Source: Chlorokybus atmophyticus
Taxonomy: Eukaryota; Plantae; Mesostigma and Chlorokybus algae
Direction: 5' to 3'
Assembly (NCBI GenBank): GCA_009103225.1
Contig: RHPI01003169.1
Coordinates: forward strand, 62,001-126,000
Length of the DNA stretch: 64,000 bases
Shown: in pieces, positions 857-61,082 of the stretch
Numbering within the stretch: the stretch's first letter is position 1
How the letters are laid out: every line of letters begins with the position of its first letter
Notes under the pieces: model-generated
Told to the model about the DNA's origin: nothing
Databases searched by the model: none
The model's input: only the letters and a program-made list of their open reading frames with translations
Translations under genes and position numbers: made by a program

Positions 857-1774
857 TGCATGCAGCACCGGAAGAAATGGCCCCCCCAACAGTTCGGCCT
901 TGCCCTCAATTTAAATGGAGATTTAGCTATAAAATCTATTAGAGAACCGCATGTAAGCAACGTATCGGATTTTGCATTTCACCTGCTGCAGCCACAACTT
1001 AGTTTGGTATCTGACTGCCATGAAGGTCAAGTAGTTCGTGTGCATTAAGTTCGATATGCGTCTTTTTTTGAACTTGGAAAAAGTCCACATCATGTACTAT
1101 TATTGGGTTGGATCATGTATTAAGGGGATTAAACTTAATGCGTGATCAAACCCCAAAATGTTAGGGCCACAGTTCGCGGCAAAAACCCAAACAGTCACAA
1201 CGCAACGGGATTTGCGCCTATGTTGCCGGGTTGCGAACCTGTGCGGATGTGCCTGCCGGGTTTGCAAGCAACGACCTATGACTTAAACCCTGACCGACAA
1301 GACTAACCACAAAATACATAGGATATCGAGCGTAACAGCTATTACTTTTTTAACTGCCTCAATTGTCTAACGTGCCGCAAGAATTGTTGCATGGATTGCA
1401 TGCATGGATATTGTAGTTAAACGTACATATGTATATGTACGTATAACTACTATACATATATATATGCACATATACTTATGCATATACACAATATATACAT
1501 ATATAAATATATATACATAAATACATACATATACATACATAAGCTGGTAGCCGTTTATGTATATACGGCTACCAGTACCTGTGTTTTTATTTCTGATACA
1601 TAATCGTGAAGGAAATTACGGAGATGTAGGTGACTTGGGGATGAAGAATGTATTAGACCTGCCGTCCCGTCAAATCGCTTTATAACTAACAGATGTCGGC
1701 ATTAAGTTTCCTACATCACCTGTTGGCCAGATTGTTTGCGTTGAGTTGGGGAAGTCTTTAACTCATGTGCTAGT

Positions 1775-2902
1775 TGTCGTGCCTGCCATGGTCGAGGGCA
1801 ACTTTGTCTCGGACAGGCTGCGGAGGAGTGCTAGTGCTGCACGCATGCTAGTGCCGTGCATTGCATTGGAGTCATATAAGCAAAAGACAACCCCCCAATC
1901 GTGGGCATAGGCTTGAAGATGAGCCTACGCGGTGTTGAGTGCAGTGGATGAGCCGATGCCGCTCGCCACCTTTGTGTACAGACTGTGTCGTAGTGCACAC
2001 AGTCAACAAGCCACTACGATAGGTAGTGCTGTGGACACAGTTCTTTGCATGAGTGGATAGAATGATACACTGTTAAGTGAGGTGAATGAGTGTGCAACAC
2101 GTGGACAACACCCTGACTATTGAAACAACACACCACCGTCAAGCTCACAGCAATAACAGGCACAGCGCACAAGAGCATGCACCGTGTCTCACGCAGTAAG
2201 GGAATTCTTGGCAACCGGGGCAGCGTGCTTCCAGTTCAAGTCGCTTCACAAGCTCTTTAGAAACAGAGTCTTTACTTCTTAGTACTCCTAGTACTCACAG
2301 TACTCACTTACAGTGTCACCAGCCAGTCTGGTGACGTGACTTCCTACTTATACATGTCAAATCATGACTGTGCAGTGCCACGCGGGCACTAGGCCAACGG
2401 TCACATCGAGGCCTCATGCTATTTCGGAAATCTCCTAAGACTCGATATAGCACATTTGTTATTAACAGACTTACAACTGATCAGCTACGCGCAGTCCCTA
2501 CAGACGGGTTTATAAAGTAGCCCTAGCTACATGCTACATGAGCGGTACAGTAGCTAGCAGTAGGCTGGGGCTCGCGCGGTCTTCATGCCGGTAGCCCGGG
2601 CGTGGGGCTGGGTGTAGGCATGCTCGAGAAGGACTGGCATGCGAGGGTAGATGGCATGACAGCTGTTGTGCCTGCCATGGTCGAGGGCAACCTTGTCTCG
2701 GACAGGCTGCGGAGGAGTGCTAGTGCTGCACGCATGCTAGTGCCGTGCATTGCATTGGAGTCATGTAAGCAAACGACACCCCCCCAATCGTGGGCATAGG
2801 CTTGAAGATGAGCCTACGCGGTGTTCAGTGCAGTGGACGAGCCGATGCCGCTCGCCACCTTGATGTACAGACTGTGTCGTAGTGCACACAGTCAACAAGC
2901 CA
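1775..2902 (-). repeat. 3' terminal repeat block: A (1775-2013), B (2001-2661), gc spacer, A' (2664-2902); polypurine tract at ~2903-2910
   Basis: 1775-2013 matches 2664-2902 with fewer than about 10 differences. 2001-2661 matches 12411-13073. The sense-strand agggggg directly precedes A'. Confidence 0.9.
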
Positions 2903-2948
2903 ACCCCCCTGAGATTCTGGGGTAGCCCTCTGCTCCAGAACTCAGTTC

Positions 2949-4523
2949 CTACCGACTGTGTGGGGGACCGTTGATGCGGCAGTCATTGCACCAGTACTCC
3001 CACAAGGGTACTGCGTCCAGTGGAGGGTCAAGGCAGTAGCAGTGCATGCCTTGATTACAGCCGTCGCATAACATCATCAATGGGTCGTCGTCGGCGCTGC
3101 CACACTTCTCGCATCGGGTGCTGCGCAGCGGACGCGGGTGCTGGATCTTGGTGAAGCCAGCAATGTAGGGGAGATGACAGGGCGCGCAGTTGACCATGTT
3201 ATCCTTAATGCGCTCGCCTCGTTGTCCCAACAGGTCCAGTACCCCTGTGGGGTGCACCTTCAATACCTTGTAGACAGCACGCCCGACGGAGGTATCGAGG
3301 GTGTCGCGTGTAGACGCCATACGGTAGACGAAGTCTCCTGACTCGAAGCGGCGCTCCCGCTCCTTGTAGAAACCACTGCGCACACGCTTGTAACGCAGCG
3401 TGTCGCGGTGCTGCGCGATGCGCAGGTTGTTGAAGGCCATGGGGACTGTGTGTTCGAACAGCGCACTGCGCACTGTCAGATCATACAACATCTCGTCGGG
3501 GTTGTCGAGATTGTCCACCACTTTGTCGACCTCCTGCTGTGCGCGGAAAGGGAGTAATGGCTGCCTTTCGAACAGTAGATAGTATGGGCTGTACTCTCGC
3601 AGGGCTGCCTGCTTGGACAGCCGGTAGCCCATTGCTACCCATGGGAGGTGATCATCCCAGGTATTCTTCTCGTAGGCAAGGACGTACTTGCGCAGTGCCT
3701 TCTTGATGGTCTGCACGGTACGCTCGGCGAGGCCGTCGGCCTGCGGGTGGTCGCGTGAGGTGCGACGGTGGTCGATGAAGCATCTGTCGATAAGCTTGTT
3801 GAAGGCTCCTCTGAACTTCGTACCCTGGTCGGTGATGACTTCAGCGCAGCTGCCGAAGCGTCCGCGTACATGGGAGAGGAAAGCCTGGGCTACTCCCTCG
3901 CTGCTCTTGTCGGGCAGGGGCACCAGCTCCACCCACTTGGAGAAGTGCTCGATCATGACGAGGATGTAGCGGTTGCCTCGCGCTGAGGGCGCTAGGTCTC
4001 CGAGGATGTCCAGTCCCCAGCGGTAGAACAACCCGGAAATGGGAAGGGGATGCAAGGTGGCATTGCGCGTGTTGAGGCTGGCGCGAACCATGTCACACTG
4101 CTGACAGTTGCTGACGAACTCCCGCACCTGTCTGTGCACCCCATACCACCAGTACTGGGTCCTGACCAGGCTGACCGTGCGCTTGACGCCGAAGTGCCCG
4201 AGCTTGGTGTGAAGGGAGGAGATGATGCCTTCACGTGCAGCTAGTGTGGGGACCTCCTGATCTGCATTTTGTATCCGTCGATACAGCCTGTCGTTGGCCC
4301 AGCGGTAACGCTGAGTGCGTTGCCGGACGCGGTCCTTCTCGCGTGCGCTCATGCCTGCTGGAAGTTGTCCAGTCTGAAGCAGTGCGAGGGATGGCTCGTC
4401 CAGCCAGATGTCTTGTCGCGTGTCGGTGGGTGCCAGCTCCTCATCATCCACCTCAGGGTCGGCAGCGACCGCTTCTTCTGATAAAGAAGCTGTGGTGATG
4501 ATGGCGGGCTCGAGAGCGGGCAT
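2949..4523 (-). CDS. Integrase (HHCC zinc finger, DDE core) with C-terminal PHD finger at 2979-3113
   Basis: H..LGH...CQQC; WGLDI, TDQG, AERTVQTIK; CEKC-x11-CDGC-x4-H-x2-C-x13-WC-x2-C. Confidence 0.92.
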   Translation of the reverse strand: MPALEPAIITTASLSEEAVAADPEVDDEELAPTDTRQDIWLDEPSLALLQTGQLPAGMSAREKDRVRQRTQRYRWANDRLYRRIQNADQEVPTLAAREGIISSLHTKLGHFGVKRTVSLVRTQYWWYGVHRQVREFVSNCQQCDMVRASLNTRNATLHPLPISGLFYRWGLDILGDLAPSARGNRYILVMIEHFSKWVELVPLPDKSSEGVAQAFLSHVRGRFGSCAEVITDQGTKFRGAFNKLIDRCFIDHRRTSRDHPQADGLAERTVQTIKKALRKYVLAYEKNTWDDHLPWVAMGYRLSKQAALREYSPYYLLFERQPLLPFRAQQEVDKVVDNLDNPDEMLYDLTVRSALFEHTVPMAFNNLRIAQHRDTLRYKRVRSGFYKERERRFESGDFVYRMASTRDTLDTSVGRAVYKVLKVHPTGVLDLLGQRGERIKDNMVNCAPCHLPYIAGFTKIQHPRPLRSTRCEKCGSADDDPLMMLCDGCNQGMHCYCLDPPLDAVPLWEYWCNDCRINGPPHSR

Positions 4524-4550
4524 GTCCCCGTCTGTTGCTGCCTTAGCAAT

Positions 4551-5753
4551 CTAAGTCCTGCGTCCTGAGCGTAGCGCAGCGACAGCGAACATGGTGGCCA
4601 CACCTGAAGGTGCAGCTGTAGGACCCAACTCATATCGGGCGCCTGTGGCGTTGTTGGTGCTGAGGTGGGGGTTACAGCTGAGGCCATCCGCATCCTGGTT
4701 GGCAAGGCCTGCGCGGTGTTCCACCTCGAAGTCGTACTCCTGGAGCAGCAGCGCCCATCGTGCTAACTTTCCTGTCAAGTGCTGGTTGTTCATTAGCCAC
4801 TTGAGGGGTTGATGGTCAGTGACCAGTTGGAACTGCCGTCCAAACAGGAAGGGTCGGAAGAAGAAGATGGCTGTTACGGCAGCAAGCGAGCTGGGCGTAA
4901 TACATAAGAACAGAAGTAGCCATAATTACAACCATGGTCTTTTATGGCTAAGATGGCCGGACCCTTGTCGTAACAATTGGTATCGGGGCTGACAACCTAA
5001 AGGTCGTGGGCTCGACTCCCAAGGGGGATAGAGCGGCGATTTTATGGTTGACAAAGATCCGGGGATGAACCCGCGGCCTTGGGCAAGCCGCAGGTAGGAA
5101 AGACCCGCGACCTTGAGCAAGTCGCGGTTAGGGGACGGCAAGAACGCGACGCGGCATGGCCGGTCGCTAGAACGTTCGCCAGCATGCGAGCGAGAATGTT
5201 TGCCAGCGTGCGAACAAGAACGAGATCGAGGATCTCGAGAACGACAATGCGGGCTGGGCAAGTCGCGTTGAGTCGCGCAAGAGGCGCCGGCCGAGAGAAG
5301 CATTGGTCGAGACAGCTCGGTCGCCCGCGGGGCGGAGGGCTGAGAATCCCTATAAGGATACGCACGAGGGCGTGCTAAGTTCAAATGGGGAGGTGTGTTA
5401 CGGCAGCAAGCGAGCTGGGCGTAATACATAAGAACAGAAATAGCCATAATTACAACCATGGTCTTTTATGGCTAAGATGGCCGGACCCTTGTCGTAACAA
5501 TGGCCCACACTGCGGCGAGACACTCCCCTTCGTAGCTGCTGTAGTTGGCCTCAGCACTGTTGTTGCTGCGGCTGGCGTACGACACTACGCGCTCCTTCTT
5601 GTTGTTGTCGTGCTGTACGAGCATGGCCCCCATGCCGAGCTTGCTCCAGTCTGTGTGCAGGATGAACGACCTGGTGTAGTCAGGGCGTTGCAGAATGGGA
5701 GCTGTGGTGAGGCGGAGCTTCAGCTCCTGAAAGGCCTCATGTTGTGCCTCCTT
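4551..5753 (-). pseudogene. RNase H domain; stop codon at 5751-5753 and interrupted by a TRIM
   Basis: FILHTDWSKLGMGA, YEGECLAAVWAI, then after the TRIM: TDHQPLKWL, KLARWALLLQEY, NQDADGLS. Confidence 0.85.
4872..5499 (+). mobile_element. TRIM (628 bp): LTRs 4872-4975 and 5396-5499, iMet-type PBS, PPT
   Basis: 104-bp tgttac..gtaaca repeats differing at 1 base. PBS tggtatcggggc at 4978. PPT aaatggggagg. TSD atggc at 4867-4871 and 5500-5504. Confidence 0.95.
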
Positions 5754-6840
5754 TCACAAGAACTCGGTGTCCTTTTTCAGTAGTTCGTTGAGAGGCCTTG
5801 CAATCTTGGCAAAGTCCTTGACAAACCGGCGGTAATAGTAGGCAAGGCCGAGGAAGGCCCGCAGCCGCGTGAGGTCTGTGGGGGCAGGGATAGCCACCAG
5901 TGCCTCCACTTTGGCCTGCTGTACGTACACACCATGGGGCACAATCATGTGTCCTAGGTAGGGTACCTTGTGGGTGAAGAAGGTGCACTTGTCAGGGTGC
6001 ACCGTCATCCCGACTTCCTTCAGCCTCTGTAGCACCTCTTCGATGTGCTGGAGATGCTCCTCATTGCTGTGACTGAAGATGAGGATGTCGTCGATGTAGC
6101 ATCGTGCGAAGTGCAACCCCTTGAGGGCTTTGTCCATGACGCGCTGGAACTTGGCCGGAACGTTCTTCAGTCTGAAGGGCATGACCTTCCACTGGTACAG
6201 CTGCCGGTTTCCCCAAAAGGAAGTCTTGTGCTTGTTCTCCTCCTTGATGGCGATCTGGTTGTACCCTTGGCGCATATCCAGGATACTAAAGACCGCGCAG
6301 TCTCCTACATCGTCAAAGATGCCTTCTGCGGTAGGCATTGGATACCTGTCCTGCTTGGTCTTGTTGTTAAGGGGGCGATAGTCGCCACACATGCGCCGGT
6401 CTGTCAAGTTGCCTGCTGAATCTTTCTTCAGGGGCATGACGGTCGCGGCCGCAAAGTCCGATGTGGACTTCTCGATCAGGCCTGCATCTAGCAGCGCCTT
6501 GCACCTCTGTTCCACCAAGTCTTCTTCTAGCTTGGAGAGGCGGTACTGTCTTCTGAACACCGGTTCGGTGTCCACTAGTTCAATGTCCATCTGGTATGCT
6601 GTGCAGATGCCTAGCTCCTTCACACTGAAGCTGAATTGGCTCCTCCACTTGTTGAGGAGAGCCTCGAGTTGCTCTCGAGTCTGGCCTATGGTCAGCGGTC
6701 CAATGGCGTGGGACCACGAGGTAGCGTTGGCGACCACTGGAATGTCTTCCACAGTGACTGCTGCCTGCTCCTCCATATGGGCGGTCTCGAGGGCGGTGTG
6801 TGCTGCTTTGGTCTCTGAAAAGCGAGCAATCCACCCCCCC
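5754..6840 (-). CDS. Ty3/gypsy reverse transcriptase domain
   Basis: RMCGDYRPLN, FSILDMRQGYNQI, VMPFRLKN.PAKFQR, CYIDDILI. Confidence 0.95.
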
Positions 6841-9800
6841 AGCCAAGTGTTCGAGCTCCTGAAAGGACACATGGCGGTCCTGGAGAGCAAAGCACATTTC
6901 CAAGTACCACACCATGCTGTTTTGATCCATGGCGCGCCCTAACAACTGACACTGCTGACTGGTTGTCAGCGTGGAGCCTGTGATGCTGCCTGAAAAGAAT
7001 CCCATAGCACGCTCGCGCTCACGGGCATTGGGTTCTTCCAGCTGTCCAGTGTTGGAGTCTAACATCATGCCGCCGCCTCCATTGCGGAACGCGTAGGAGC
7101 CTGGATAGGACACAAGTGTGGGTAGTGCGCGGCGCGGCTGACCAGGCTGATTGCACTGGTAGAAGTGGTGGTGGTCAAGGCGTGTAACCGGTTGCGCTGT
7201 GCGTCCAGGGTCCAGGATGTCATCGACGGCGAGATTTCGTGGCCGATTGCTGTATAGGTATTCTGCCAGAAACAGGTCCTCCACAATGGCCAGGTTGGTC
7301 CACTTGGCGCGGACGCGGTGTGCGCGAGATCCATGACGCGCGGCGTTGATTTTGAGAGGATGCCCCAGCAAGGAGCATACTTGTCGATAGGCCTTGGCGA
7401 CGTGATGCCGCTTGTCATCCTCGGAGTGCACATTCTCGATGATGTACCCCAAGGGCCTAGCGATCTGACTGGTCTGCAGGAGTTCGATGACTCTCATTAG
7501 CTCCCAGAACAGCTGTGAGCGAGGATCAGAGAGCTCATGGCCTCTGCCTGCCCTGGAGTGCCCTTGACACTCCCATCCTGCTATCAGCAGGTCAAGGTTG
7601 CCGACTGCCTGCAGGTGATCATTGGTAATCCAGCGGATGTCCTGCGGCAGAGCCTTCTGGCTCCCTTGCAGTGCCGACAGCGGTAGCTGCTGCGGGTAGC
7701 ACTGGTGCAGCTGTCGTAAATGATGGCTCAGAGCCTCCTGTGCATGAGGGTCAGGGTCACAGTAGAGGTACTTGGTGACTGTTGTTCCAGTGTTGAGGAC
7801 AGCCGCAAGCCCACTGCCTATGCCTCCAAACAGCTCTAGTACGGTGATGCCTTGTTGTCGGCGGAACATGTGGAACTCCACCACTCCTATAGCTATGTGG
7901 TACTGCTCCTGCACTGTAGCCTGGTCTTTGTAGACAGGGAAGTGTGCAGTGAGCTGAGGCCTGGTCAGTAGCATGTGTGCTGCTACTTGTGCGCTCCAAC
8001 GACACTCGGATGGCTCCTGAAAGGCCACTTCTTTGGTGACAGTCTCCTGAGACTCATCGTGCGGAGTAGGAGAGTCCTCTTCAGCGTTTAGGCTCAGGCT
8101 CGAGCTCGTTGCAGTTGTCCTCGGCTGCGTTCGGGCACGAGGCACACGTGAGCTTTTTGTAGGATTGTAGGTGGCTGCTGCGGCCGACCTTTGTTGCGAG
8201 CGGGCCTTGGCCACCAGTTTAAGAGGTAGGAATCCCTGCTCCTCTCCATCATCCTCATCCCAATGCGGTCGAAACCATGCCTGCTCAGTCCAACAGTCCA
8301 TCCCCATGCCGACAGGGAAGTTGCAGTCCTGTCCCAGCAGTAGGTCAAAGGACCCGGCATCGGTGACCACACACCTTTGTACAATCTCGGTGCTGTGGGA
8401 AGGGTTTAATCCGGTGAGGCGGATGCTCACAGCCTGCTTGGTAAGGCTGAGCACCTTGTCGCGGTTGCCGGTTGCGGTGTCCAGCTGGTAGGGACAGGGA
8501 AGCAGCTCAGCGCTGGTGATGCCGAGATCTCGTGCGAGGTAGCGCCCAATGATGACAGGCTGTGCTCCAGTGTCCAGCATCACGCGTTTAGGTGCCCGCC
8601 CATTGACGGTCACGTGCTTGCCTTGGTTGGCGATCATGGCTGCATTGGTGTTGTTGCGCAGCCTCTTGAAGCGACGGAACCTCTTGCGTGGAGAGACTGT
8701 TGCTTCACTATCATCTGCGGGGCCTGACCGTAGGGCAGCCAGGGCTCCTCTGCCTGATGGATCTTGTGGACCTCCTTGTCCTCGGCTTTGTCCAAACCGT
8801 CCTTGTCGCGGTTGCTGGTACACGCGTGGTGGCCTAGGCACTGGAGGTGCTGCTGCAACCTGTCCAAGTGGAGGTGCAGGAGGGTTGACCCTCTGTGCAG
8901 CTGTTGTCATGCCAGGAGGAGTGGCCAGTGGCTGTGGCGGGAACCCTGGAGGACCTGGTGTTTGCGGGACTGCCTCTCGTGCAGCCTGCTCCTCTGCATA
9001 GGTCCATCGCACAGCATGGGCTGCCTCTCTGACTAGTGTACCTTCCCATGTAGCCGTCGCATTGTTGTTCACGTCTATATAGCGATGGTTCTGAGGCATG
9101 GGCTGCAGGTACACTGTGCGTAGGAGCCGCGCTCTCATGTCGTGGGTGATGGTGGGCACCCTGAGGATCCCTGCCATGTAAGCATCCCATCTGCCGTTGA
9201 CCACTCCCACTTCCAGCACTGTTATTGCTCGTGTGCGTACAGTGAGCTGGGTCTCTGGCTGTTGGACATGCTGCTCGTAAGCAGTGGCGATGCGCCTGCG
9301 CTGACGTCCTGCCTCCACCCCTGGCAAACTCAGTATCGCCTCCAGAGCTCCCTCCAGAGTGTCAGTGGCGGCGGAAGCCACTTCATCATAGGCTTGCCGT
9401 ATGGAGCGAAGGAATGCGTCCACCCACGCTATTCTGGCGCCGAAAGCGAACAACGGGACTGCGGGATGGTTGGTAACCAGCCACGTCACTAACCGTGCGC
9501 GTGCCGCGTTGCCATTGTCTCGCATCCCAAGCATCTGCCGAAGTCCGATGCCTTCTTGCCGATGCAGCATGGTTGCTTGTCGCAACAGAGCAGTGCGTAG
9601 TTGTTGCTCTCCAACCAGTCCTGCTCCATCTCTTTGTGTACACCCTTGTGGTGTAAGGTAGCCCCTCCCTGGCTCCCTTTGGTCCTCAGGTAGATCCTCC
9701 ACCAGCGCAGGCAGCAACGGGGCGATCACCCCCCTGGTTTGTTGAGCCAACGCCCTCGCTTGGTCAGAGTTGGTCTCGACGAAGAGCGGAGTGGTGCTGG

Positions 9801-10320
9801 AGGATGGACCAGCAGTTGGTGACTGAGGTATTGGTGCACGTGTAGCTTCAAGAGCTTGTTCACGTGCAGCAATGGCGGCAGCTTGATCCTGTCGCCAATG
9901 ATATGCTTGTTCCAGTGCGTGGTAGCGCTGATGAAGACGAGCGGTTGTAGGAGGTCCGAGTGCTTCATCAGTGCCCAAAGGCAGGTCGGCTGCGTCGGCG
10001 ATGCGCTGCTGGACGGCGTCTCGGCGGTCCCGATACGTGTCCAACGGGCTGGGTTCAAAGGTGGTGGTTGGCATGCGTGCAGGCTGGCGCGGGGCGGTCT
10101 GCATGTTGTTGTGCAACGCCCAGAACAGCTGCAGAGCCAACTCCAACACTACAGGTGGGCTGTAGCTGATCAAAAACACCCTGTCACGCATCGGAGGTGC
10201 AGTGCCAGCAAGGATCTCATCTTCTAACTGGTGTTGAGTGAGTGCTGGAAGGGTGTGAACCTCTGGTAGCGGGAAGACGCGATCATCGCGGGCGACACGC
10301 GTGGTGCGCTCCCCCCCCCC
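6841..10320 (-). CDS. Polyprotein segment: ~550-aa unknown region + aspartic protease + DNMT
   Basis: Part of the 1297-aa ORF. Protease motif VMLDTGAQPVIIG at ~8550-8590. Confidence 0.85.
6925..7850 (-). CDS. C5 cytosine DNA methyltransferase domain inside the polyprotein ORF
   Basis: Motif I VLELFGGIGSG, IV IAGWECQGHS, VI IIENV, VIII HRVRAKW, IX/X RERAMGF..LLGRAM, all in canonical order and spacing. Confidence 0.88.
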
Positions 10321-12207
10321 GGCCGAAGGCGATGGTAGTGGGGTCTGCTCCGCGCAGGATGGTTTCCCATGCTCGTTCAGCTTGCTGACCAGTTGGGACA
10401 GCCTGAGTGACGTCGAGAGCGGGCAGAGTGGCTGCGCGCGTCGCTGCAGAGACAGCGGGCTCGACGATGGCAATTGTGGCAGTTGCGTCGGTACCGGTCA
10501 GTGGTGCGAGAGTTGTCTCAACGCCTACGGACAGAGGCACTGCTGCAGTGGGAAGTGCACCGCTCGCTGGTGCAGATTCGGTAGAGATGGCGGCTGTTGC
10601 CATTGTGCTCACCAGTATCGGTGTCACGGTGTCCATCGGTGTACCAGGTTGTGGTGCAACTGGAGTGGGTGCTGCTGACGTTGGTGGAGCCGACGTTGTA
10701 GCCGGTGTGGCCGTTGCTGCGGAGGCAGCACCACTGGTGGCTTCGGAGGAGGTGCCTGCTGATGTTGTTGCAGTTTCCCCTCGTGCTCGTCGTGATGGTT
10801 GCACGCGGGACGGAGTGTTCTTGACTCTCTCGCGTTTTGCAGCCATCAGCGCCCATCGGGCAGTGTAGCAGGCGCGGTAGTCCTGCTCCTTGTCTTCCTC
10901 CAAGCGTGCCATACGCGCCATGAGGGCTGCCATATGGTCATCAGCTGGTGGGTTGGCTGAAGCCTTGGCGGCAACAGCAGCAGCGCGCGGACGTGTCTCT
11001 GGTCCCTTACGCTGAGGAGGTCTGTTCTTCCCCCTGTAGCCTTGCTCTTCCTTGCGAACACTGGCGTTGTTGTTGTTGTTACTGCCACAAGCGTTGTTGC
11101 TGTTGTGGGCTCCAGTGTTGTTGCTATTGTAGCCACTGAAGTGGTTGCCAGTGTGGCCTCCAGTGTTGTTGCTGTTGTAGCCACTGAAGTTGTTGCCATT
11201 GTGGCCTCCAGTGTTGTTGCTGTTGTAGCCACCGGAGTAGTTGTGGTTGTAGCTGTTGGCGGGCCTCAATTCTGGGAACTTGAGCCAGCAGACTGACTCC
11301 AAATGACCAGTCTTGTGACAGTGGTGGTCGCAAACCAAAGTTGAGTATTCTTCGGTGCACTCCTTTTGATAGTGCCCATGCCGTCCACAGCGATAACACA
11401 GCACATGGGCAGCAGATGCAGCACGAGCTGACCGTTTCCCTTTGTCGCGTGCTGGTGGAGCGTCCCGGCCACCTGTTGCCAGGTGTTGCTGGAGGTAGAG
11501 GAGTACCCCACTCTGCGGCTGCCGCTTGCTGTACAGCTCTTTGTTCCTCAGTGATGATGGCAGAACGGTCAAGGATGCGGACTCGACGTGTGGCCTCCTT
11601 GGACTCAACTTCTGCAGGGGTCAAGTTGACAAGTACCAACTCTGGTTCCTCCTCCTCTGCCTGCTTGAGAGCTGCAGCTATGGACAAGCCTGTTACTGCA
11701 ACTGAAGCGGCAGGTGGAACGACACCTGCTGGACGGTGCAGAGATGCAGATGCTATGGTGCTGGCAAGCTCGCCATAGCCGTCTACTCGATGGAGTTCAG
11801 CAACGGACTTCCAGACATCGTGTGCTTCATGATCAAGATACTGAGCAGCAATGTAGAAAGAGATCTCATCTGACCAGTCTTTGTTCTTCAGAGCTTGCTG
11901 CCGCATCTTGAAGTGGAACTTGATGATGAACTCATCCAGCGAGGTGGTGCCGGCACGTCCGGAGGAAGCGCAGTGATGTGGTTGAACTGGAAGACTCCAT
12001 CTCGTGGTCGTCGCTGTCCGATGATAGTGGAGAAGCTTGATGACGAGGAGTAGAGTGGAGCGGGGTGAAGCTGGAGATGGAGCGCGAGCCTCTGCTGCTG
12101 CGGTCGATGCTCCCGTCACTGGTCCGCTCGTAGGTGAGGTTGGTGGTTGGGCTCCAATTGCTGAGGTCACCCTCGTCTATTGGGGAGAACGGGGTGGGCC
12201 TGCTCAT
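10283..12207 (-). pseudogene. Gag with two zinc knuckles, an N/G-rich repeat and an Ala/Thr-rich linker; frameshift at ~11965 and ~470-bp deletion at ~11472 relative to the older copy
   Basis: ATG at 12207 (MSRPTPFSPIDEG). CYRCGRHGHYQKEC and CDHHCHKTGHLESVC. 21110-21580 of the older copy has no counterpart here. Confidence 0.8.
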
Positions 12208-12398
12208 ACACAGCTGGTCCAGAGGTGAAAGGGTAGAGTGCTTGTGCTCTACCGTCTATTCTGATGCTGTTACCACCCAACACACTAGTGCTTGTGCGCA
12301 CTATGTGATGACAATGATAGCGAATGCCCAGCGATCTATCCCTGGGTGCAGACTGCACTATCTGATGCAGATTGCAACACACTCACTTGTGCAAAGAG

Positions 12399-12764
12399 GG
12401 TGACACTGTAAGTCAACAAGCCACTACGATAGGTAGTGCTGTGGACACAGTTCTTTGCATGAGTGGATAGAATGATACACTGTTAAGTGAGGTGAATGAG
12501 TGTGCAACACGTGGATACAACACCCTGACTACTGAAACAACACACCACCGTCAAGCTCACAGCAATAACAAGCACAGCGCACAAGAGCATGCACCGTGTC
12601 TCACGCAGTAAGGGAATTCTTGGCAACCGGGGCAGCGTGCTTCCAGTTCAAGTCGCTTCACAAGCTCTTTAGAAACAGAGTCTTTACTTCTTAGTACTCC
12701 TAGTACTCACAGTACTCACTTACAGTGTCACCAGCCAGTCTGGTGACGTGACTTCCTACTTATA
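12399..12764 (-). promoter_or_regulatory. Putative TATA box (12757-12764), transcript start (~12732) and self-priming site (12399-12413)
   Basis: 12399-12413 ggtgacactgtaagt is the exact reverse complement of 12718-12732. Sense-strand TATAAGTA lies ~30 nt upstream of 12732. No tRNA-type TGG PBS after the repeat. Confidence 0.7.
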
Positions 12765-13073
12765 CATGTCAAATCATGACTGTGCAGTGCCACGCGGGCA
12801 CTAGGCCAACGGTCACATCGAGGCCTCATGCTATTTCGGAAATCTCCTAAGACTCGATATAGCACATGTGTTATTAACAGACTTACAACTGATCAGCTAC
12901 GCGCGGTCCCTACAGACAGGTCTATAAAGTAGCCCTAGCTACATGCTACATAAGCGGTACAGTAGCTAGCAGTAGGCTGGGGCTCGCGCGGTCTTCATGC
13001 TGGTAGCTCGGGCGTGGGGCTAGGTGTAGGCATGCTCGAGAAGGACTGGCATGCGAGGGTAGATGGCATGACA
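12411..13073 (-). repeat. 5' terminal repeat (B only)
   Basis: Matches 2001-2661 with about 10 substitutions and one 2-bp indel. No A segment adjacent. Confidence 0.9.
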
Positions 13074-13658
13074 TAGTACTAATCATAGCACATGCAAGTA
13101 GCAGCCTTCTACATGTACTTGCTTGCCCTGCGGCCTGCTAGTAGCATAGATAGGTCGCGGGGTTGATCTTGGCAATGATGAGGTCATGAAATCATTAGGG
13201 TTTGTACCAGTGCAAAGTAATGATCGTAACACACACCTTTTTAAGTATACATCAGTGTACTATAAATGGAATCGTTCAACGTACATGATGATGTATAGCT
13301 TTAGCATGCAGCGTTAATGCATTTTTACACTGTCGCCGCGTCCTTAATTGCGTTGGGGAGTATAGTTGCGTCGTTCATAATTTGGTTACAACTGTGTTCA
13401 CAATTTACTCATGCCTTTCTCACAACACAAACCATTAATGACGTCAACGCTGAATCCTCAACGTTGTTAAGGATTCGGTGCTTACGATTGTTACTAGCGG
13501 AGTGCCGTTTGTGACAGGTTGTAACAGTATTTTGGCTACAATCATGACATATATATGGATCTGCCGTGAAGTTTACAAAATCTGCAAATTATGTCCGGCT
13601 GCGTCCATTACAAAGTTGCGGATTCAGCGTGACTTGCCGAAACCCATTTCTATCGGTG

Positions 13659-16600
13659 CAGGACCCAACTCGTGTCAGGCTCCTGTCGCATCGTCGGTGC
13701 TGAGGTGAGGGTTGCGACTAAGCCCGTCTGCGTCCTGATTGGGCAGGCCTGCCCGATGCTGCGCCTCAAAGTTATACTCCTGCAGCAGTAGTGCTCACCG
13801 TGCCAGCTTGCATGTCAGGTGCTGGTTGGTCATGAGCCACTTTAGTGATCGGTGATCAGTTGGAACTGCCGTCTAAGCAGCAAGGGCGGAAAAAAAAGAT
13901 GGCCCATACTGCGGCGAGACACTCCCCCTCAAAGCTGCTGTAATTGGCTTCAGTGCTGTTGTTGCTGCGGCTGGCATACAACACTACGCGCTCCTTCTTG
14001 TTGTCATCGTGCTGCACGAGCACTGCTCCCATGCCGAGCTTGCTCCAATTTGTGCAGGATGAATGACATGTCGTAGTCAGTTCGCTATAGAATGGGATCT
14101 GTGGTGAGTTGGAGCTTCAGCTCCTTGAAGGCCCCTTATTGCGCCTCTTTCCATAGGCACTTCGTGTCCTTCCTCAGCAGCTCGTTGAGTGGCCGCGCGA
14201 TCTTCGTGAAATCCTTGACGAACTGTCTGTAGTAGTCGGCAAGGCCGAGGAAAGCATGCAGTCGCGTGAAATCTGTGGGGGCAGGAATGGCCACTGGTGC
14301 CTCCACTTTGGCCTGCTGTACATACACACCGTGGGGCACCATCATGTGCCCTAGGTAAGGTACCTTGTGGGTAAAGAAGGTGCACTTGCCGGGGTGCAAC
14401 GTCATCCCTACTTCCTTCAGTCTCTGTAGCACCTCCTCGATGTGCCTAAAATGCTCCTTATTGCTGCAATTGAAGACGAGGGTGTTGTCGATGTAGCAGC
14501 GTGCGAAGTCCAATCCCTTAAGGGCTTTGTCCATGACGCGCTGGAACTTGGCAGGCGCATTCTTCAGTCCGAAGGGCATGACCTTCCACTGGTACAGCTG
14601 CCAGTTGCCCCAGAAAAAGGTCTTGTGCTTGTCCTCCTCTTTGATGGCAATCTAGTTGTACCCTTGGCGCATGTCCAGGACACTGAAGACTGTGCAGTCT
14701 CTTACATCTTCAAAGATACCTTCTGCAGTAGGCATTAAATACCTGTCATGTTGTTAATGGGGCGATAGTCACCGCACATACGCCGGTTTGCCCACTTGCC
14801 TGCGGAGTCCTTCTGCAGGGGCATGACGGTGGCCGCAAAGTCCGATGTGGACTCCTGGATCAAGCCTGCATGTAATGGAGCCTTGCACATCTGCTCCACC
14901 AAGTCTTCTTCCAACTTAAAGAGTCTGTATTGTCGTTGGAACACCGGTTCGGTGTCCACCAACTCGATGTCAATATGGTAAACTAAGCAGCTCCTTTACG
15001 TTGAAGCTAAAATAGCTTTTCCACTTGTTTAGGAGAGCCTCAAGTTCTTCTCGTGTCTGGCCTGTAGCCAGCGGTCCAATGGTTTGAGACCAGGAAGTAG
15101 CGTTGGCGACCACTGGATTGTCCTCGACAGCGACTGCTGTCTGCTCCTTTATGTGGGCGATCTCGAGGGCAGTGTGTGCCGCTTTAGTCTCTCGAACGCG
15201 ATGTTACACCCCCCCCCCCCCCCCCCCCNNNNNNNNNNNNNNNNNNNNNNNNNNNNNNNNNNNNNNNNNNNNNNNNNNNNNNNNNNNNCCCCCCCCCCCC
15301 CCCCCCACACCAGGTGTTTCAGCTGCTTGAAAAGGACATGGCGGTCCTGGAGAGCAGAGCACATCTCCACAACAACCACACCATGCTGTTCTGGTTTATG
15401 GCGCGCCCCAACAACTGACAATGCTGACTGTCGATCAGCATGGAACCTGTGATACTAGCTGAACAGAATCCCATGGCGCCTTCACGCTCGCGAGCATTGG
15501 GTTCCTAGCCGGCCTGTGTTGGAATCCAACGCCATGCCGTCGCCTTTGTCACGAAAGGCGTATGACCCTGAGTAAGACACAAGAGTTGGGAGCGCACGGC
15601 GTGGCCGACCAGGCTGGTTGCATTGATACTCGTGTCGCGTGATCGGTTGTGCTGTGTGTCCATGTTCCGGGATAGCGTCGACGTTAAGATCGCGTGGATG
15701 ATTGCTATGCAGATGCTTAGCAGCAAAGAGATGCTCCACTGTGGCCAGGTTGGTCCATTTGCGCGGACACGATGAGCACGAGATCCATGATGTGCTGCGT
15801 TGATTCTGAGAGGATGCTCAAGCAAGGAACACACATGTCAAAACCTGTTGGCCACGTGATTACGCTTATCGTCATAGGAGTGCACGTTCTCAACGATGTA
15901 CCCCAGAGGCATGGAAATCTAGTTGCTCTGCAGGAGTTTGATGACGCGCATCAGCTCTGAAAAAAGTTACGAGCGAGGATCATAGAGTCCTTGGCGCCTG
16001 CTTGGGAGTGTCCTCGACACTCCCAACCTGCTATCAGCACGTCGATGTTGCTCACAGCCTACAGGTGATCCGCAATGATAAAATGGATGTCCTGTGGCAG
16101 TGCTTTTAGACTGCTTTGCAGTGCTGATACTGGCAGCTGCCGCGGGTAGCACTCATGTAGGCGGCGCATGTGGTGTGGCTCAGGGCAATCTGTGCCTGTG
16201 GATCAGGGTCACAATAGAAGTACTTGGTGACCGTCGCGCCGGTGTTGAGGACAGCGGCAAGGCCACTACCTATACCTCCAATGTTCCAACACGGTGATGC
16301 CTTGTTGTCGGCGAAACACGAGGAACTCCACTACTCCAGTGGCCACCTGGTATTGCTTCTGGAATGCAATGTAGTCCTTGTAGCGAGGGAACCGTGCAGT
16401 AAGCTGTGGTCTGGTCAGTAGTAGATGTGCAACCACTTGTGCGCGCCGGCGGCGTTCGGATGGTTTCTGTTGGGTCACTTCTTCAGTGGCGTCCTCCTGA
16501 GACTCAATGTATGGGATAGGAGAGTCCTTGTCATGGTTGTGGGTGGCCACTGCCGCTGACCTGATTATGGTTGTCAAAGCTGACCTGTAGGTGGCTGTTG

Positions 16601-19600
16601 CAGCTGATCTTTGGTGAGAGCGAGTGCGAGCCACCAGCTTGAGAGGCAGATATCCCTGAACTTCTCCATCCTCCTCATCCCTATGGGGACGAAACGATGC
16701 CTTCTCCGTCCAGCAGTCCAGCCCCATGCCAACAGGAAATTAAAAGTCCTGTTCCGGCAGCTAGTCGAAGGATCCCGCGGTGACCACACACTTTGGTATG
16801 AACTTGATGCTGTGGGGAAGGTCCAACCCTGTCAAGCGAATGCAGAAGGCCTGCTTGGTGATGCCAATCACCCTATCGCGGCTGCCGGATGCTGTGTCGA
16901 GCTCGTATGGGCAGGGCATCCGCTCAGCGCTGGTGATGCCGAGGTTGCGTGTGAGGTAGCGCCCGATAATGATAGGCTGGGCTTCAGAGTTCAGCATCAC
17001 GCGCTTGGTTGCTCGACCATTGATGGTAACATGCTTTGGGGTTGTGGCGGGTGCGTTTGCTGCTACCTCTACTTTGTCTTGCTCTACTCCCTTGCTGCCG
17101 TTGCACTTAGTGTTGTCCTAACCTAGGCCCCTTGCCCCTGGTGCTAATGTATACATGAGATTGGCTGTGTATGTGAGCTTGTGCGTGGCTGGTGCATGGC
17201 TGTGTACTAAAGAGCACTGCATTGCACACCACCTGGCCCCTACTACTTGCTACCTGGCCCCTCAAGTGCTCAGATTTATGCTTGCCTGCGTTGGCAATCA
17301 TGGCTGCATTGGCGTCGATGCGCATACGCTTGAATCGTCGGTAGCGTCTGCGTGGGGTGGCTGCTGCTGCTGTCTCCTCCGATGGTGTTGAGCGCAGTGC
17401 GGCAAGCGCCCCTCGACCGGCTGGGTCTTGAAAATCTTTTTGTTCGCGGCCTGGCTCGAATCGTTTAGGTCTTAGTTGTTAATATACTCGCTGCGGCCTG
17501 GGAGCTGGCGGTGCTGCTTGTGGCTGCTTTGGTTGTGGCGCAGAGGGATTGCGCCTCTGTGTGGCCGTAGTTATACCTGGCGGTGTAGCTAGAAGTTATG
17601 GAGGAAACCCTGGAGGACCAGGTGTTTGTAGGCCCGCCTCCTGTGCAGCCTGTTCTTGTACATAAGCCCAGCGTACAGCATGAGCCGCCTTCCTTGACCA
17701 ATGTACCTTCCTATGTGGCTGTTGGATTGTTGACCACATCACCCCAGCGATGGTTCTGAGGCATGGGCTGAAGTTCCTTTGCGCGCAGGAGCCGCGCTCT
17801 TATGTCGTGGGTAATGATGGGAGCCCTTAGGATCCCTGCCATGTAGGCATCCCATCTGCCATTGATTACCCCCACTTCCAATACCGTTGTTGCTCGTGCA
17901 CGCACAACGAGGTAGATCTCTGGTTCTTGGACATGCTGCTCGTATGCAGCTGCGATGCGCCATATTTTACATTTACTCTTCTTAAATTTTTAGTAAAGGA
18001 GATGCTGCCATAAGGCATCATATCGCGATGCGGGTAAAGGATAACTCAAAAAGCAAATGTCCATCTGTAATCGATGGAATAGGGTCAAATAGAGAATGAT
18101 TAATTACACCAAAACCAGCTCAGAGCAGCAGCCTGGTTAAATGCGTAGTCTTGTTCTAATGTCTTTTTAGATTAATTGCAGAGTAAATCGATTTTTTATC
18201 GATTTTTTAGAGCAAAAAAGGAACTTCGCATCCAGTAAAGTAAGGCGCAATTTTAGTGCAGTTTAGAGCCAGACACACAAAGTATGCACTTTAACTGCTG
18301 TGCAACAAGTAGACGTCATTTCCTTCAAAACTGATTTTAGATGCCGCTCTGCAGTCTGTATTAAAACAAATCACACACGGGCTCAGTGCTGCTGCCTGTT
18401 TATCTTCGCTACAGTACAGGTAACTTAAGTTTTACCATCAACTACTGAATCAGCGCAGCAACAACGCAGCTGCGCACCTATGCAGGCGCAGTGCGGTAGA
18501 TAACCCTCCTGCAGCCCAGCCCACGCAGTAAAGTAAAGTGACCGTGCTGTCTAATAAAAGTAGGATGCAGTCTGTTTCCAGACGCCAGAGCGAAGTTATT
18601 AAAATTGCATTCTCTTACCAATATGACCTACATCGAAAGGTGGCCCACTTGAGTTTAGGTGATCTAATTAAAAAGATTTATAAATTTCACCATTTCTAAA
18701 AAGAATTTGAGAGTTACAATTCCATCTACACACTAGGTAGTAATCGTGTTAGAAAATAGATTTGATTAAAACCTCAATAAAGTAAAGCGCAATGCTCACT
18801 CTCTTATTGTTCAGTCAAGCAGGTGCAGTTGATGGTGCAGTATGATGGGCCTTGCTTTACCTGGCAGTGCAGTGCTGTCAACATATTTTATCGGTACACG
18901 CTGCATCTGGTAGCTTCCTAAACTTTATAGTTTCTAATGAGTTACAAAAGTGTAAAGATGTATAGCCGCTGCGGTGTTACTAGTAACTGAGCTATTTTTA
19001 GACTTGGCGTATTTGAAACCTTTTATAAATAGATTGCTTGAGCCGTATGCTTGGAAACAAGCACGTACGGTTGTCGCGCTGCTTCCACTCCTGGCAACTT
19101 CAATATAGCCTCTTTAGCTCCTTCTAAGGTGTCAAAGGCTGCCGAGGCCACCTCGTCATAGGCTTGCCATAGCGAGCGAAGGAAGGCGTCCAACCATGAC
19201 ATTTTGGTGCCAAATGCGAACAAAGGGACTGCGGGGTGATTGGTGACCGGTTAAGTCACTAATCTCGTACACGATATATATATATTGCCACCTTCTCGCA
19301 TCCCTATGATCTGTCTCAGGCCGATGCTTTCTTGTCAATGTAGCATGGTTGCTTGTCGCAACAAGGCAGTGCGAACTTGCAATCACTAGGCCTGCTCCAT
19401 CCCGTTGTGTACACCCTTGTAGTGTAAGGTGGCCTCTCCATATCTCGTTGATCGTCAGGGAAATCTTCCATCATTGCGGGGCGATCACCACCTGGTTTGT
19501 TGGGCCAGCGCCCTTGCCTTGTCAATATCGATCTCGACGGCGAGAGGTGTTGTGCTGAACGATGGGCCAGCGATTGTTGGTTGAGAAACGGAAGCACGAG

Positions 19601-22600
19601 CAGCGGCAAGGGCTTGCGCTCGTGCATTGCAATTTGGTCCTACCGCCAAGTGAACGCTTGTTCCGCGCGAAGCGCTCGTCAAGCCGAGGAGTAGTGAGGG
19701 TCTTCGGTGCTTCGATGATACCCATAGGCATGCCAGCTGCATCGCTGGTGTGCTGCTGCACATTGGGTTGCCGGTCTCGATACGTGTACAGCGGACTTGC
19801 CTCAAATGGCTCGTAACGGACTTGTGCGGGCTGGCGTGGCGCGGTCTACATGTTGTCATACAGAGTCCAGAACAGCTGCAGGGCCAACGCCAACACAACA
19901 TGTGTTCTAACCACAAAGACGCGGTCTCGCATGGGAGGTGCCGTGCTGGCAAGGATTTCATCCTCTAGTTGCCGCTGGGTCCGCTCTGGCAGGGTGTGAT
20001 ATTTATTTAGGGGAAAACCGCGATCACTGTGTTCAGCGCGCGTGGTGCGCTTTTTTTCTCGCCGAAAATAAATGGTAGTGGGATCTGCTCCACGCATGAT
20101 GGTCTCCCATACGCGCTCAGCTTGCTGACCTTGCTGAATAGGCTTAATGGCGTTGAGGGCGGGCAACGTAGCTGCGCGCGTCGCTGCAGTGGCAGCAGAC
20201 TCTACGATGGCACCGGCAGTGGTTGCGATAGTGCCGATAAGTGGCGCGAGAGTGGTCTCAATGCTCGCTGACACAAGTGATCCTGTAGCTGGAGCGGGAC
20301 CGGTGCGATCTACTGCTACAGAGTCGGTGACAGCAGTGGCTGACGCCATCATGCTCACCAGTGTTGGCGTCACGGTGCCCATTGACGTACCAACTCCTGG
20401 TGCAACTCGAGTAGATGCTACTGACGTTGACGGAGTCTTTGTACACGGTGTGGCTGTTGCAGCACCACTGGTGGCTTCAAAGGAGGTAGCTGCTGACGAT
20501 GTTGTAGCTTCCCCTCGTGCTCAATGGGATGGTTGAACGCGTGACGGAGCGCTCGTGACACGAGCCTCGTGACTCTCGCGCGCTTTGGAGCCATCAGTGC
20601 CCATCGGGCAGAGTAGTAGGCGCGGTAGTCCTGCTCCTTGGCTTCTTTTAAGTGTGCCATACGCGCCATGAGGGCAGCAATATCGTCATCAGTTGGCGGG
20701 TTAGCTGAAGCCTTGGCGGCAACAGCAGCAGCGCGCAGACGTCCTTCCAATCCTTTACACTGGGGAGGACGATTCTTCCCCCTGTAGCCTTGCTCTTCCT
20801 TGCGAGCGTCGGCGTAGTTGTTGTTGTCGTTATGATCTCCGGTGTGGTTGCTGTTGTAGCCCTTAGAGTGGTTGCCGTTGTGGCCTCCAGTGTTGTTGAT
20901 GTAGCTATTAGCAGGTTTCAACTTAGGGATCTTGAGGCAGCACACTGACTCCAAGTAACTAGTCTTGTGACAATGGTCGCAAACCAGAGTTGAGTACTCC
21001 TCGGTGCACTCTTTTGGTAGTGCCCATACCGTCCACATCGATGATACAGCAAATCAATATGAGCTGACCGTTTCCCTGTGTCGCGTGCTGGTGGAGTGTC
21101 CCGGCCACGTTCGCGGCACCCAAGTAGTTGTGCTGGCTACAGGCCGTGAGGCGCTGCGGTTGGTGTCTAGCACTGCCTTTTTACACACCAAGCGCTTGTG
21201 GATGGCTTGTGCAGTCTCGAAAACTTCCTTGAGCGTGTGGCCAAGGGGCCTGCTGTAGTTCAGGGACAGGCGCGTCGACTCGCTCAGGGTGGCATCCAAC
21301 TCATTGACATACACCACTGTAGCAGCCTCATTACTGACGATGTTATTAGTGTCCTTCAACAGCCCCCTCAGTCTGGAGTACAGGCGTGGAGGGTCCTCGT
21401 TGGGCTTGCGTCGAAACCGTTTTGGCTCCTCCACTTTGCTGGTGGTCTAAGGTGGGAAGGTGCGACGAAGTGCAGCGTATATGTCCGTGAGTGGAAGGTC
21501 AGAGATGGCGGACCTGCAGTGATGGCTGGTGCGCGCAGTGCAACTGATCCGAGGGTGAAAGCACTGCCTCCCCGCACGAGAGCCAGATGTTGCCAGAGGT
21601 AGAGGCGTGCCCACCTCAACGGCTGCAGCTCGTTGTTCTTCAAAGATAGCAGCAGAACGGTTCAAGATCCGAGCCCATCGTACGACCGTCTTAGTCTCAA
21701 TCTTTGCAGGGGTCAGGTTGACGATCACCAACTTATGCTCCTCCTCCTCTGCCCTCTTTATGGCTGCAGCTATGGACAAGCCGGTGACTGCAGCTGGAGT
21801 GGCAGGAGCGATGGCTGCTGTGACGCAGATGCTATGGTGCTGTCGAGCTCGCCATAGCCATCAACTCGATGTCAGCAACAAATTTTTAGACATCGTGTGC
21901 ATCATGGTCCAGATATTGAGCAGCAATGTGGAAAGAAATCTCACCTGATCAGTCTTTGTTCTTCAGAGCTTGCTATCGCATCTTGGGGCTGACTAAGATT
22001 TGATGATGAATTTGTCCAGCGAGGTGGTGCCAGCATGTCCGGAAAAGCGCAGGGATGTGGTTGAGCTGCAAGGCTCCATCTCATGATTGTCGCTGTTGGA
22101 TAGTCGATAGTGGGGAAGCTTGATGGCGAGGAGTAAACCGGAATGGAGTGAAGCCGGTTACAGAACGCGAGCCTCTGCTGCTGCGATCGCTGCTCCCGTT
22201 GCTGGTTAGCTCGTCGGTGAGGTTGGAGGTTGGGCTCCAGCTGTCCAGGTCACCCTCGTCTATTGGAAAGAACGGGGTGGTCCTGCTCATACAGCTAGTC
22301 CACTGGTGAAAGTGTATGCATGGTAGAGTGTTTGTGCTCTACCGTTTATCTTAATGCTGCTACCACTCACCACACTAGTGCTTGTGTGCGTACTATGTGA
22401 TGATAGTCATAACGAATGCACAGAGATATATCCCTAGATACAGACTGCACTATCTGATGCAGAATGCGACGCATTCATCTGAGCAAAGAGGGTGACATTT
22501 TGAGTAAACAAGCCACTACGATAAGTAGTGCTGTATACACAGTTCTTTGCATGAGTGGATGATGTATTACACTATTAAGTGAGGTGAATGAACAAGCAAC

Positions 22601-23142
22601 TCAGGGATGCTATGTCTTAACTGATGCAGCAAACACACCACTGCCAAGCTCATAGCAATAACAAGCACAGCGCACAAGAGCATACACTGTGTCTCACGCA
22701 GCAAGGCAGTTATAAGCAACCGGGACGGTGTGCTTCTGGTTCAAGTCGCTTCACAAGCTCTTAAAGTCAAATTTTTTTCTTTTCTTACTCACTCAAAGTG
22801 TCACCAGCGAGTCTAGTGACATGACCTCCTACTTATGCATGTCAGATCATGACCGTGCAGTGCCACGCTGGCACTAGGCCAATGGTCACATCGAGGCCGT
22901 ATGATACTACAGAGATCCCCTAAGACTCGATATAGCACATGAGCTGATAAAAGATTCCTAACTGATCAGCTACGCGCGGTTCCTACAGAGAGGTCTATAG
23001 AGCAGCCCTAGCTACATGCTACATAAAGTACGAAGTAGCAGTAGGCTGGGGCGCGCGCGGTCTTCATGCTGGTAGCCCGGGCTTGGGGCTGGATGCAGGC
23101 ATGCTCGAGGAGGACTGGCATGCGAGGGCATCTGCCATGACA
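13659..23142 (-). mobile_element. Older, decayed copy of the same DNMT-Ty3 family (B repeat ~22501-23142, gag, unknown domain, PR, DNMT, RT, partial RH)
   Basis: Collinear with 4620-13073. DNMT motifs IAGWECRGHS and IVENV retained. Many stops and frameshifts. N gap at 15229-15288. Confidence 0.9.
17962..19070. mobile_element. AT-rich ~1.1-kb insertion into the older Ty3 copy, unclassified
   Basis: Interrupts sequence that is contiguous at ~9290-9310 in the younger copy. Ends in a hairpin, ccgtatgcttg-gaaa-caagcacgtacgg. No clear TSD or TIR. Confidence 0.5.
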
Positions 23143-61080: not shown

Positions 61081-61082
61081 GC

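Follow-up and report, generated by a model that had tools for sequence, protein, structure and literature searches.

A DNMT3-like cytosine methyltransferase domain in the Pol region of a split-repeat Ty3/Gypsy retrotransposon of Chlorokybus atmophyticus

Within a 64,000-nucleotide stretch of Chlorokybus atmophyticus DNA (contig RHPI01003169.1, positions 62,001 to 126,000; hereafter the window), we identified a Ty3/Gypsy retrotransposon whose Pol region carries a domain that is, almost certainly, a DNMT3-like C5 cytosine methyltransferase. Elements of this kind are already known, and the window alone is not surprising to a specialist. The family to which the element belongs proved to be large, with two alternative positions of the methyltransferase and two natural versions of its active site.

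The domain is encoded by a minus-strand ORF of 1305 residues, 6580-10497(-), in which an aspartyl protease (residues 629-724) is followed in the same frame by the methyltransferase, whose Pfam match begins 220 residues further. PF00145 matches residues 948-1031 (E 1e-8, 35.5 bits; curated cut-off 22), so the HMM search proposed in a sequence-only reading of this DNA did return the expected profile. Motifs I, IV, VI, VIII, IX and X follow each other in the canonical, unrearranged order, which is not that of DRM enzymes. The AlphaFold model of the domain, built from an alignment of 28 sequences, has a mean pLDDT of 86. A Foldseek search with this model placed DNMT3A at the top (E 3.5e-17), the best matches being DNMT3A/B/C, and VIA superposed it on DNMT3A with a Z of 26.1 and an rmsd of 2.6 across 259 residues; the best prokaryotic CpG methylase reached a Z of 22.3 and M.HhaI 21. 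The family profile likewise matched DNMT3A in the PDB (E 1.5e-16) ahead of M.HaeIII (1.8e-6) and the DRM-type structure 4onj (3.7e-6). The closest solved methyltransferases in sequence and fold are those of DNMT3, and the claim of the sequence-only reading that C5 methyltransferase motifs stand in frame with the protease is borne out by the profile match, the fold and the motif order. The catalytic domain of human DNMT3A is the best match among solved structures and shares the motif order, but the two are only ~20-26% identical; the window domain reads GWECQ where DNMT3A reads GSPCN, has an insertion of ~25 residues between motifs II and III, and is accompanied by neither a PWWP nor an ADD domain.

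The element spans positions 1775-13073 (11.3 kb) on the minus strand, begins with TG, ends with CA and is flanked on either side by TAGT, a 4-bp target-site duplication. Self-comparison of the window showed split repeats in the arrangement A-coding-B-A-B. The features are listed in Table 1.

Table 1. Features of the element and of the related copy in the window
Feature	Position	Strand	Basis or remark
Target-site duplication TAGT, left	1771..1774	+	
Repeat B2, element 3' end, ends CACGACA	1775..2013	-	
Repeat A2	2001..2661	-	self-comparison
Internal B/A junction CACAACA-GC-TGTCATG, two bases joining both element ends	2655..2670	-	
Repeat B1, ends CACAACA, behind G-rich purine tract	2664..2902	-	95.9% to B2
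Integrase, H2C2 zinc finger and DDE core	2949..4550	-	PF17921; PF00665 32.3 bits, just below cut-off 32.6
PHD finger at integrase C-terminus	~3113-2979	-	PF00628
RNase H region, stop before it at 5754-5756, split by nested insert	4617..5753	-	frames, match to older copy
Nested mini LTR element, non-coding, 628 bp, not host-element sequence	4872..5499	.	
Reverse transcriptase (RT), ORF 5754-6938	5943..6422	-	PF00078 E 3.7e-30
C7 run, frame shift between methyltransferase and RT	6834..6840	.	ORF frames
DNMT3-like C5 cytosine methyltransferase domain	6880..7860	-	PF00145, model pLDDT 86, Foldseek, VIA
Motif X GRAMD	6939-6925	-	domain continues to ~6880
Motif VIII RVR	7317-7309	-	
Motif VI ENV	7437-7429	-	
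Motif IV GWECQ, catalytic Cys	7578-7564	-	
Motif I ELFGGIG	~7836-7816	-	
Aspartyl protease, in ORF 6580-10497 with methyltransferase	8326..8613	-	PF13650 E 6e-8
Gag region, two frames, CCHC zinc knuckle	10283..12176	-	PF00098
Repeat A1, element 5' end, starts TGTCATG	12411..13073	-	98.2% to A2
Target-site duplication TAGT, right	13074..13077	+	
Older, decayed copy of same family, 73-83% identical	13657..23142	-	self-comparison

The window copy is defective: it has a frameshift at or close to the C7 run, one stop at 5754-5756 and another just upstream of the integrase at 4551-4553, the nested insert, and shifts and a deletion in gag, where ~470 bp of the older copy's sequence are absent near 11472. 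The contigs of three of four runs carry a C7 run one base shorter (81.4 of 92, 45 of 45 and 5 of 5 in depth, which we did not take as copy number; 0 of 3.04 in the fourth run) and also differ from the window at 5754, so that both breaks look private to the window copy or its assembly. At the corresponding place in the older copy (15209-15307) a long run of C is accompanied by a gap of Ns, and this site therefore seems unstable or hard to assemble. The methyltransferase had been described as embedded in the polyprotein between protease and RT. Because the RT of the window copy lies one frame off and two relatives, P0226 and P0290, join protease, methyltransferase, RT, RNase H, integrase and PHD finger in one ORF, this description holds for the family and not for the window copy as it stands.

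Behind A1 the window element shows no canonical tRNA primer site, and its replication route is accordingly a guess. Neither a tRNA gene nor a relevant Rfam family was found, and the element contains no complement of the 13-nt shared segment that would hint at self-priming. The tyrosine recombinase that is the hallmark of DIRS elements is not what the window element uses, as it has a DDE integrase and a 4-bp duplication. Pfam revealed no Dam domain or chromodomain in six window ORFs and two intact relatives. The nested mini element (4872-5499) has TG...CA repeats of ~105 nt and a 5-bp duplication, ATGGC. It also contains TGGTATCGGGGC, a primer-site-like segment, followed by a tRNA-arm-like stretch, and its CpG observed/expected ratio of ~1.2 is unlike that of its surroundings.

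The older copy in the window allowed selection on the domain to be estimated. Its methyltransferase (~15330-16320) has four stops in the aligned domain and, as the sequence-only reading had noted, keeps both W-E-C (there GWECR) and ENV in an alignment of the two copies; its integrase, 3' repeats and CA-NN-TG junction were not found. Comparing the two copies, we obtained a dN/dS of 0.147 in the methyltransferase domain; RT has 0.218, RNase H 0.192, the protease 0.271 and the linker between protease and domain 0.368. Three further pairs of close relatives gave 0.12, 0.076 and 0.095 for the domain, and distant pairs gave 0.19-0.27 or were saturated; the RT comparison with locus L002 was set aside, as a break in that copy spoils its RT. 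The methyltransferase domain is under purifying selection. A dN/dS near 1 combined with a variable catalytic Cys had been named as grounds for dropping the proposal; the close pairs lie far below 1, and the Cys is constant across all 120 aligned domains. Related contigs show 107 differences over 7280-7660, and among the 40 listed 24 are silent and none falls in the Cys or ENV codons.

Several other aspects of the two copies deserve mention. Their synonymous divergence is 0.6-0.96 upstream of RT (6880-10200) and 0.37-0.43 in RT and RNase H (5500-6485), a difference that hints at recombination between element lineages. The stretch from the zinc knuckle to the protease (8700-10260, minus strand; ~520 residues) has no Pfam match, yet its dN/dS of 0.22 marks it as a conserved part of the polyprotein. 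The older copy is interrupted at 17962-19078 by an AT-rich insert of ~1.1 kb ending in a hairpin (19041-19072) that resembles domain V of group II introns (38.2 bits, cut-off 40, E 2e-4), with no domain VI behind it.

Two homologue searches yielded 124 distinct representatives. The methyltransferase stands between protease and RT in 38 of them (the first order, that of the window element) and follows RNase H and precedes integrase in 81 (the second order); 5 are unassigned. In the domain tree as well as in the RT tree the two orders separate cleanly (FastTree support 0.996 and 0.949). Named hosts are Closterium for the first order and Haematococcus and Hariotina for the second; none of the hits carries the name Klebsormidium. 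A metagenome scan confirmed at least 280 members among 599 pattern matches, and the 80 loci kept comprise 76 of the first order, 1 of the second and 3 with the domain alone; the domain is unbroken in 5 of the 80. Several of these loci sit among land-plant-type genes, and a PPR-DYW gene beside locus L024 shares a 90% cluster with genes of five Sphagnum species, which links this locus to Sphagnum. A profile search returned 525 clusters (at 50% identity) with E 1e-30 or better; 91 of the best 150 have the second order, 13 the first and 46 are short and without an assigned order, and the clusters beyond these 150 may include host enzymes. None of 564 proteins is more than 50% identical to the window domain. 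One second-order polyprotein of 3602 residues (P0339) has PF00293 (NUDIX) among its precomputed domains.

A prokaryotic source was considered and rejected: 247 phage records match the domain, with at most ~30% identity among the 20 listed. Viral candidates comprised 29 loci that match only its N-terminal half, and another viral scan gave none. In bacterial genomes 2 of 94 pattern matches were confirmed, both of them whole retroelements on short MAG contigs. A tree of 32 element domains and 14 phage methylases, built by a quick method and without host DNMT3 sequences, groups the element domains (SH-aLRT 100) and the second order within them (98); it shows only the separation of element domains from those phage enzymes. 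The two bacterial loci, L081 and L082, are whole elements of the family on contigs of two cyanobacterial MAGs, and are likely to be eukaryotic DNA carried over in binning. The loci L083-L111 are phage C5 methyltransferases that share the motif IV AGWPCQG.

The Glu that precedes the catalytic Cys in the window domain had been noted as a departure from the canonical Pro-Cys motif, but it is nothing peculiar. We aligned 120 domains (the window domain, 4 loci and 115 of 125 proteins, 10 with matches under 250 residues being left out), and this position is occupied by Glu in 79 of them, by Pro in 38, by Asp in 2 and by Ser in 1; Glu is thus the majority state, though both homologue-search queries were of the Glu type and the Glu:Pro ratio may be biased. 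With a profile from 5 Pro-type and 3 Glu-type domains, Glu was found in 88 and Pro in 49 of the best 150 of the 525 clusters. The Glu of motif VI ENV is as constant as the Cys (120/120), and both Arg residues of motif VIII are kept in 117 of the 120 domains; Cys, Glu and the Arg pair are equally invariant in Glu-type and Pro-type sequences. The best 150 clusters agree, with Cys in 148 (2 gaps) and the motif VI Glu in all. S. pombe Dnmt2 is reported to be still active with a Pro-to-Ser change before the Cys (PMC5372726, seen in part), and we found no tested precedent for Glu replacing Pro in the portions of the literature consulted.

The ends of the window element recur across the family. The CA-NN-TG junction is present in 12 loci besides the window element, and a second-order locus, L057, has a similar junction behind a G run. 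Seven elements have both ends, and a 4-bp duplication was detected in five by script and in one (L034) by eye, with none in L025. The layout equals that of a two-LTR circle (LTR = B+A) opened within one LTR, which suggests that the integrase cuts the junction of circular cDNA.

A second recurrent feature is an in-frame stop between domain and RT in a Pro-type branch, where 22 of 23 aligned loci have TAG or TAA with CAA-CCY behind it; a second group has exactly TAG-CAR-YYA after the domain in 3 of 3 loci, and some of these loci may be one insertion counted twice. CARYYA is the readthrough signal of tobacco mosaic virus (PMC4132726, available in part). In the Glu-type moss branch no stop is common to more than 12 of 43 stretches, and a readthrough-type stop is absent from the window lineage and from P0226, P0290 and L024, the last of which also joins the intronless methyltransferase to RT and RNase H in one ORF. 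As the domain lies upstream of the stop in one branch, more methyltransferase than RT would be made there, and such a surplus would also suit a role beyond the cDNA.

Retrotransposons carrying DNMT genes had been described as already reported, and correctly so: KnitGypsy-Dnmt3 of Klebsormidium nitens (de Mendoza 2018, PMC5890265) combines Gypsy domains and a DNMT3 in Pol with DIRS-like repeats and a Ka/Ks below 0.2. Whether the window family is among such published elements had been left to a search. By the published description, which we know in part, and not by sequence, the window element matches the KnitGypsy-Dnmt3 architecture in every feature testable: the Gypsy order of protease, RT, RNase H and integrase, an intronless DNMT3-related domain in the Pol ORF (shifted by one base in the window copy, and with the stop between domain and RT in one branch here), DIRS-like repeats on a Gypsy body, conserved key residues, and a domain Ka/Ks below 0.2, which the family shows in its four closest pairs. 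The text of PMC5890265 available to us gives no domain position, motif IV, PHD finger, target duplication or readthrough stop, although its Fig. 4c or Supplementary Fig. 13 may show them. KnitGypsy-Dnmt3 was published as an acquisition of the K. nitens lineage, whereas the relatives identified here extend to Closterium, Sphagnum, Haematococcus and Hariotina. A later account names it 'Gypsy-DNMT3' of streptophytes (bioRxiv 10.64898/2026.05.21.726589), and such elements have been placed in streptophytes and dinoflagellates (PMC12344493 and the same preprint, each seen in part).

SymbioDIRS-Dnmt3 of Symbiodinium (PMC5890265) shares with the window family a DNMT3 in the Pol ORF, A-coding-B-A-B repeats and two domain orders per family. 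It integrates by a tyrosine recombinase, however, whereas the window element encodes a DDE integrase as well as a protease and is flanked by a 4-bp target duplication; moreover, its methyltransferase has demonstrated activity, whereas that of the window family is predicted from sequence. The EpiLTRs of Cymbomonas and Euglena (bioRxiv 10.64898/2026.05.21.726589) likewise combine a cytosine methyltransferase with a chromatin-reader domain in an LTR retrotransposon, but their DNMT is sister to DNMT4 and accompanied by an adenine methyltransferase and a chromodomain, whereas the window family has a DNMT3-like domain and a PHD finger. PMC6338049, as far as accessible, treats adenine and cytosine methylases together, as present in green algae and absent in tracheophytes, and the portions seen of PMC11982613, 10.1101/2021.11.30.470311 and PMC6453930 add nothing further on the element family. 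Relative to the literature consulted, part of it in excerpt, the Sphagnum, Closterium and chlorophyte relatives, the second methyltransferase position, the readthrough-type stop and the integrase-type ends go beyond published accounts; the literature matches listed, mostly without subscription papers, include no description of moss or chlorophyte members or of split-repeat Gypsy elements.

Based on these observations, we consider it likely, with some reserve, that the polyprotein's DNMT3-like enzyme methylates the element's own new DNA in the particle before integration. Intact copies would make a polyprotein of Gag, protease, methyltransferase, RT, RNase H, integrase and PHD finger, from which the protease would free the methyltransferase domain, unless this stays tied to RT, and the domain would be packaged in the particle. 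There it would use SAM and Cys103 to methylate cytosines on double-stranded cDNA, probably in CG as other DNMT3s do. A cDNA methylated before integration would arrive pre-marked like host DNA, and the integrase would cut the CA-NN-TG junction, probably of circular cDNA, and then insert the element. That the domain is catalytically active in intact copies is predicted with good confidence from its sequence; that own cDNA is its main substrate we favour only slightly. The DNMT3 domains of two Symbiodinium DIRS elements established CG methylation de novo in yeast (PMC5890265, in part). For the Gypsy domain of Klebsormidium the same source reports no methylation in yeast, a result judged inconclusive because DNMT3B failed as well. 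The window showed no element-specific loss of CG: the CpG observed/expected ratio is 0.70 in the domain and 0.71 in the coding part, while the neighbouring Nup98 gene has 0.63 and the remainder of the window 0.78. It is 0.89 in a second, partial retroelement region (61080-64000).

The enzyme could instead act after integration, in a complex with integrase and PHD finger, methylating the new insertion and flanking chromatin and thereby damping expression or setting local chromatin. The PHD finger at the end of the integrase speaks for this. Its closest solved relatives include those of UHRF1/2, BAZ2A/B, KMT2C/D, ATXR5 and KDM5 PHD1, and its cage position is Gly and not aromatic in 136 of 161 pattern matches. 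Such a Gly would mark readers of H3K4 in its unmethylated state, a class to which the ADD domain in animal DNMT3 belongs; the UHRF, BAZ2, KMT2 and KDM5 PHD1 fingers prefer unmethylated H3K4. The second order also puts the domain directly before the integrase. In the window element, however, RT and RNase H separate the two and the domain would be cut away, and the ordinary CHG/CHH silencing marks on the Klebsormidium copies are explicable by host enzymes (PMC5890265, in part), so that we regard action after integration as unlikely. Less probable again is that a large dose of the enzyme acts in trans, with host DNA, competing elements or the DNA of invading viruses as its target. The stop after the domain in one branch would yield methyltransferase in Gag-level amounts, and an anti-viral use has been put forward as speculation (PMC6338049, in part); but the window lineage, P0226, P0290 and L024 have no such stop, a single particle coating its own cDNA would fit a high dose equally well, and the K. 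nitens methylome is described as plant-like in the accessible text of PMC5890265.

The negative yeast assay of the Klebsormidium domain (PMC5890265, in part), the loss of the Pro-Cys motif and a second Gly of motif I that is variable in the second architecture could also mean that Glu-type domains are weak or dead enzymes, retained as DNA- or RNA-binding modules. This sits poorly with Cys, Glu and Arg residues that vary no more in Glu-type than in Pro-type domains and with at least six swaps between Pro and Glu on the 32-sequence tree, as expected for two tolerated states, and we judge it slightly less probable than action in trans. We give practically no credence to the methyltransferase being a passenger gene or an assembly chimera without a role in the element: the window copy is indeed broken in several places, but the first order recurs in the older copy, in 76 of the 80 metagenome loci and in 38 of the 124 protein representatives, and the domain is under purifying selection. 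Returning to methylation of the element's own cDNA, a wider picture, which we offer as doubtful, would be of one large and old green-lineage Gypsy clade, from chlorophytes to peat mosses, that packages a DNMT3, which has moved between two Pol slots, and doses it at Gag level by readthrough in one branch. Its circular cDNA would be opened at CA-NN-TG by a DDE integrase, so that DIRS-like replication free of a tRNA primer would be combined with retroviral-type insertion and pre-methylated copies be delivered to H3K4-unmethylated chromatin.

The window, with a GC content of 52.2%, also contains CCB1, NEMP and EBP2 genes near the element and a Nup98-Nup96 gene at 30036-35696 (plus strand), whose exons are long and whose two parts share one locus. 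In a length-limited search the best Nup98 hits among the 120 of 145 listed were land-plant proteins at 50-54% identity; together with CCB1, the Nup98-Nup96 gene points to a photosynthetic eukaryote, probably from the green lineage. An inverted repeat of ~690 nt with 70% identity occupies 52-1534, and a segment between its arms (688-834) resembles the linker from RNase H to integrase in the element. At 61080-63533, a Ty3-type gag ORF comes after two tandem 840-nt repeats (97.5%); this may be a further element whose ends are complex and which the window edge truncates.

The family provides a handle on the question posed in 2018 of whether the Gypsy-borne DNMT3 is active, and on what. Hundreds of divergent domains can now be assayed; they occur naturally with either Glu or Pro in the active site and at either of two places in the polyprotein, and some of the hosts, namely Haematococcus, Closterium and Sphagnum, are culturable. 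The split-repeat structure of these Gypsy elements, so far unexplained, becomes open to test through the 4-bp duplications and the CA-NN-TG junction. If these domains do methylate their own cDNA, transposons across green plants would write the very mark that their hosts use for silencing.
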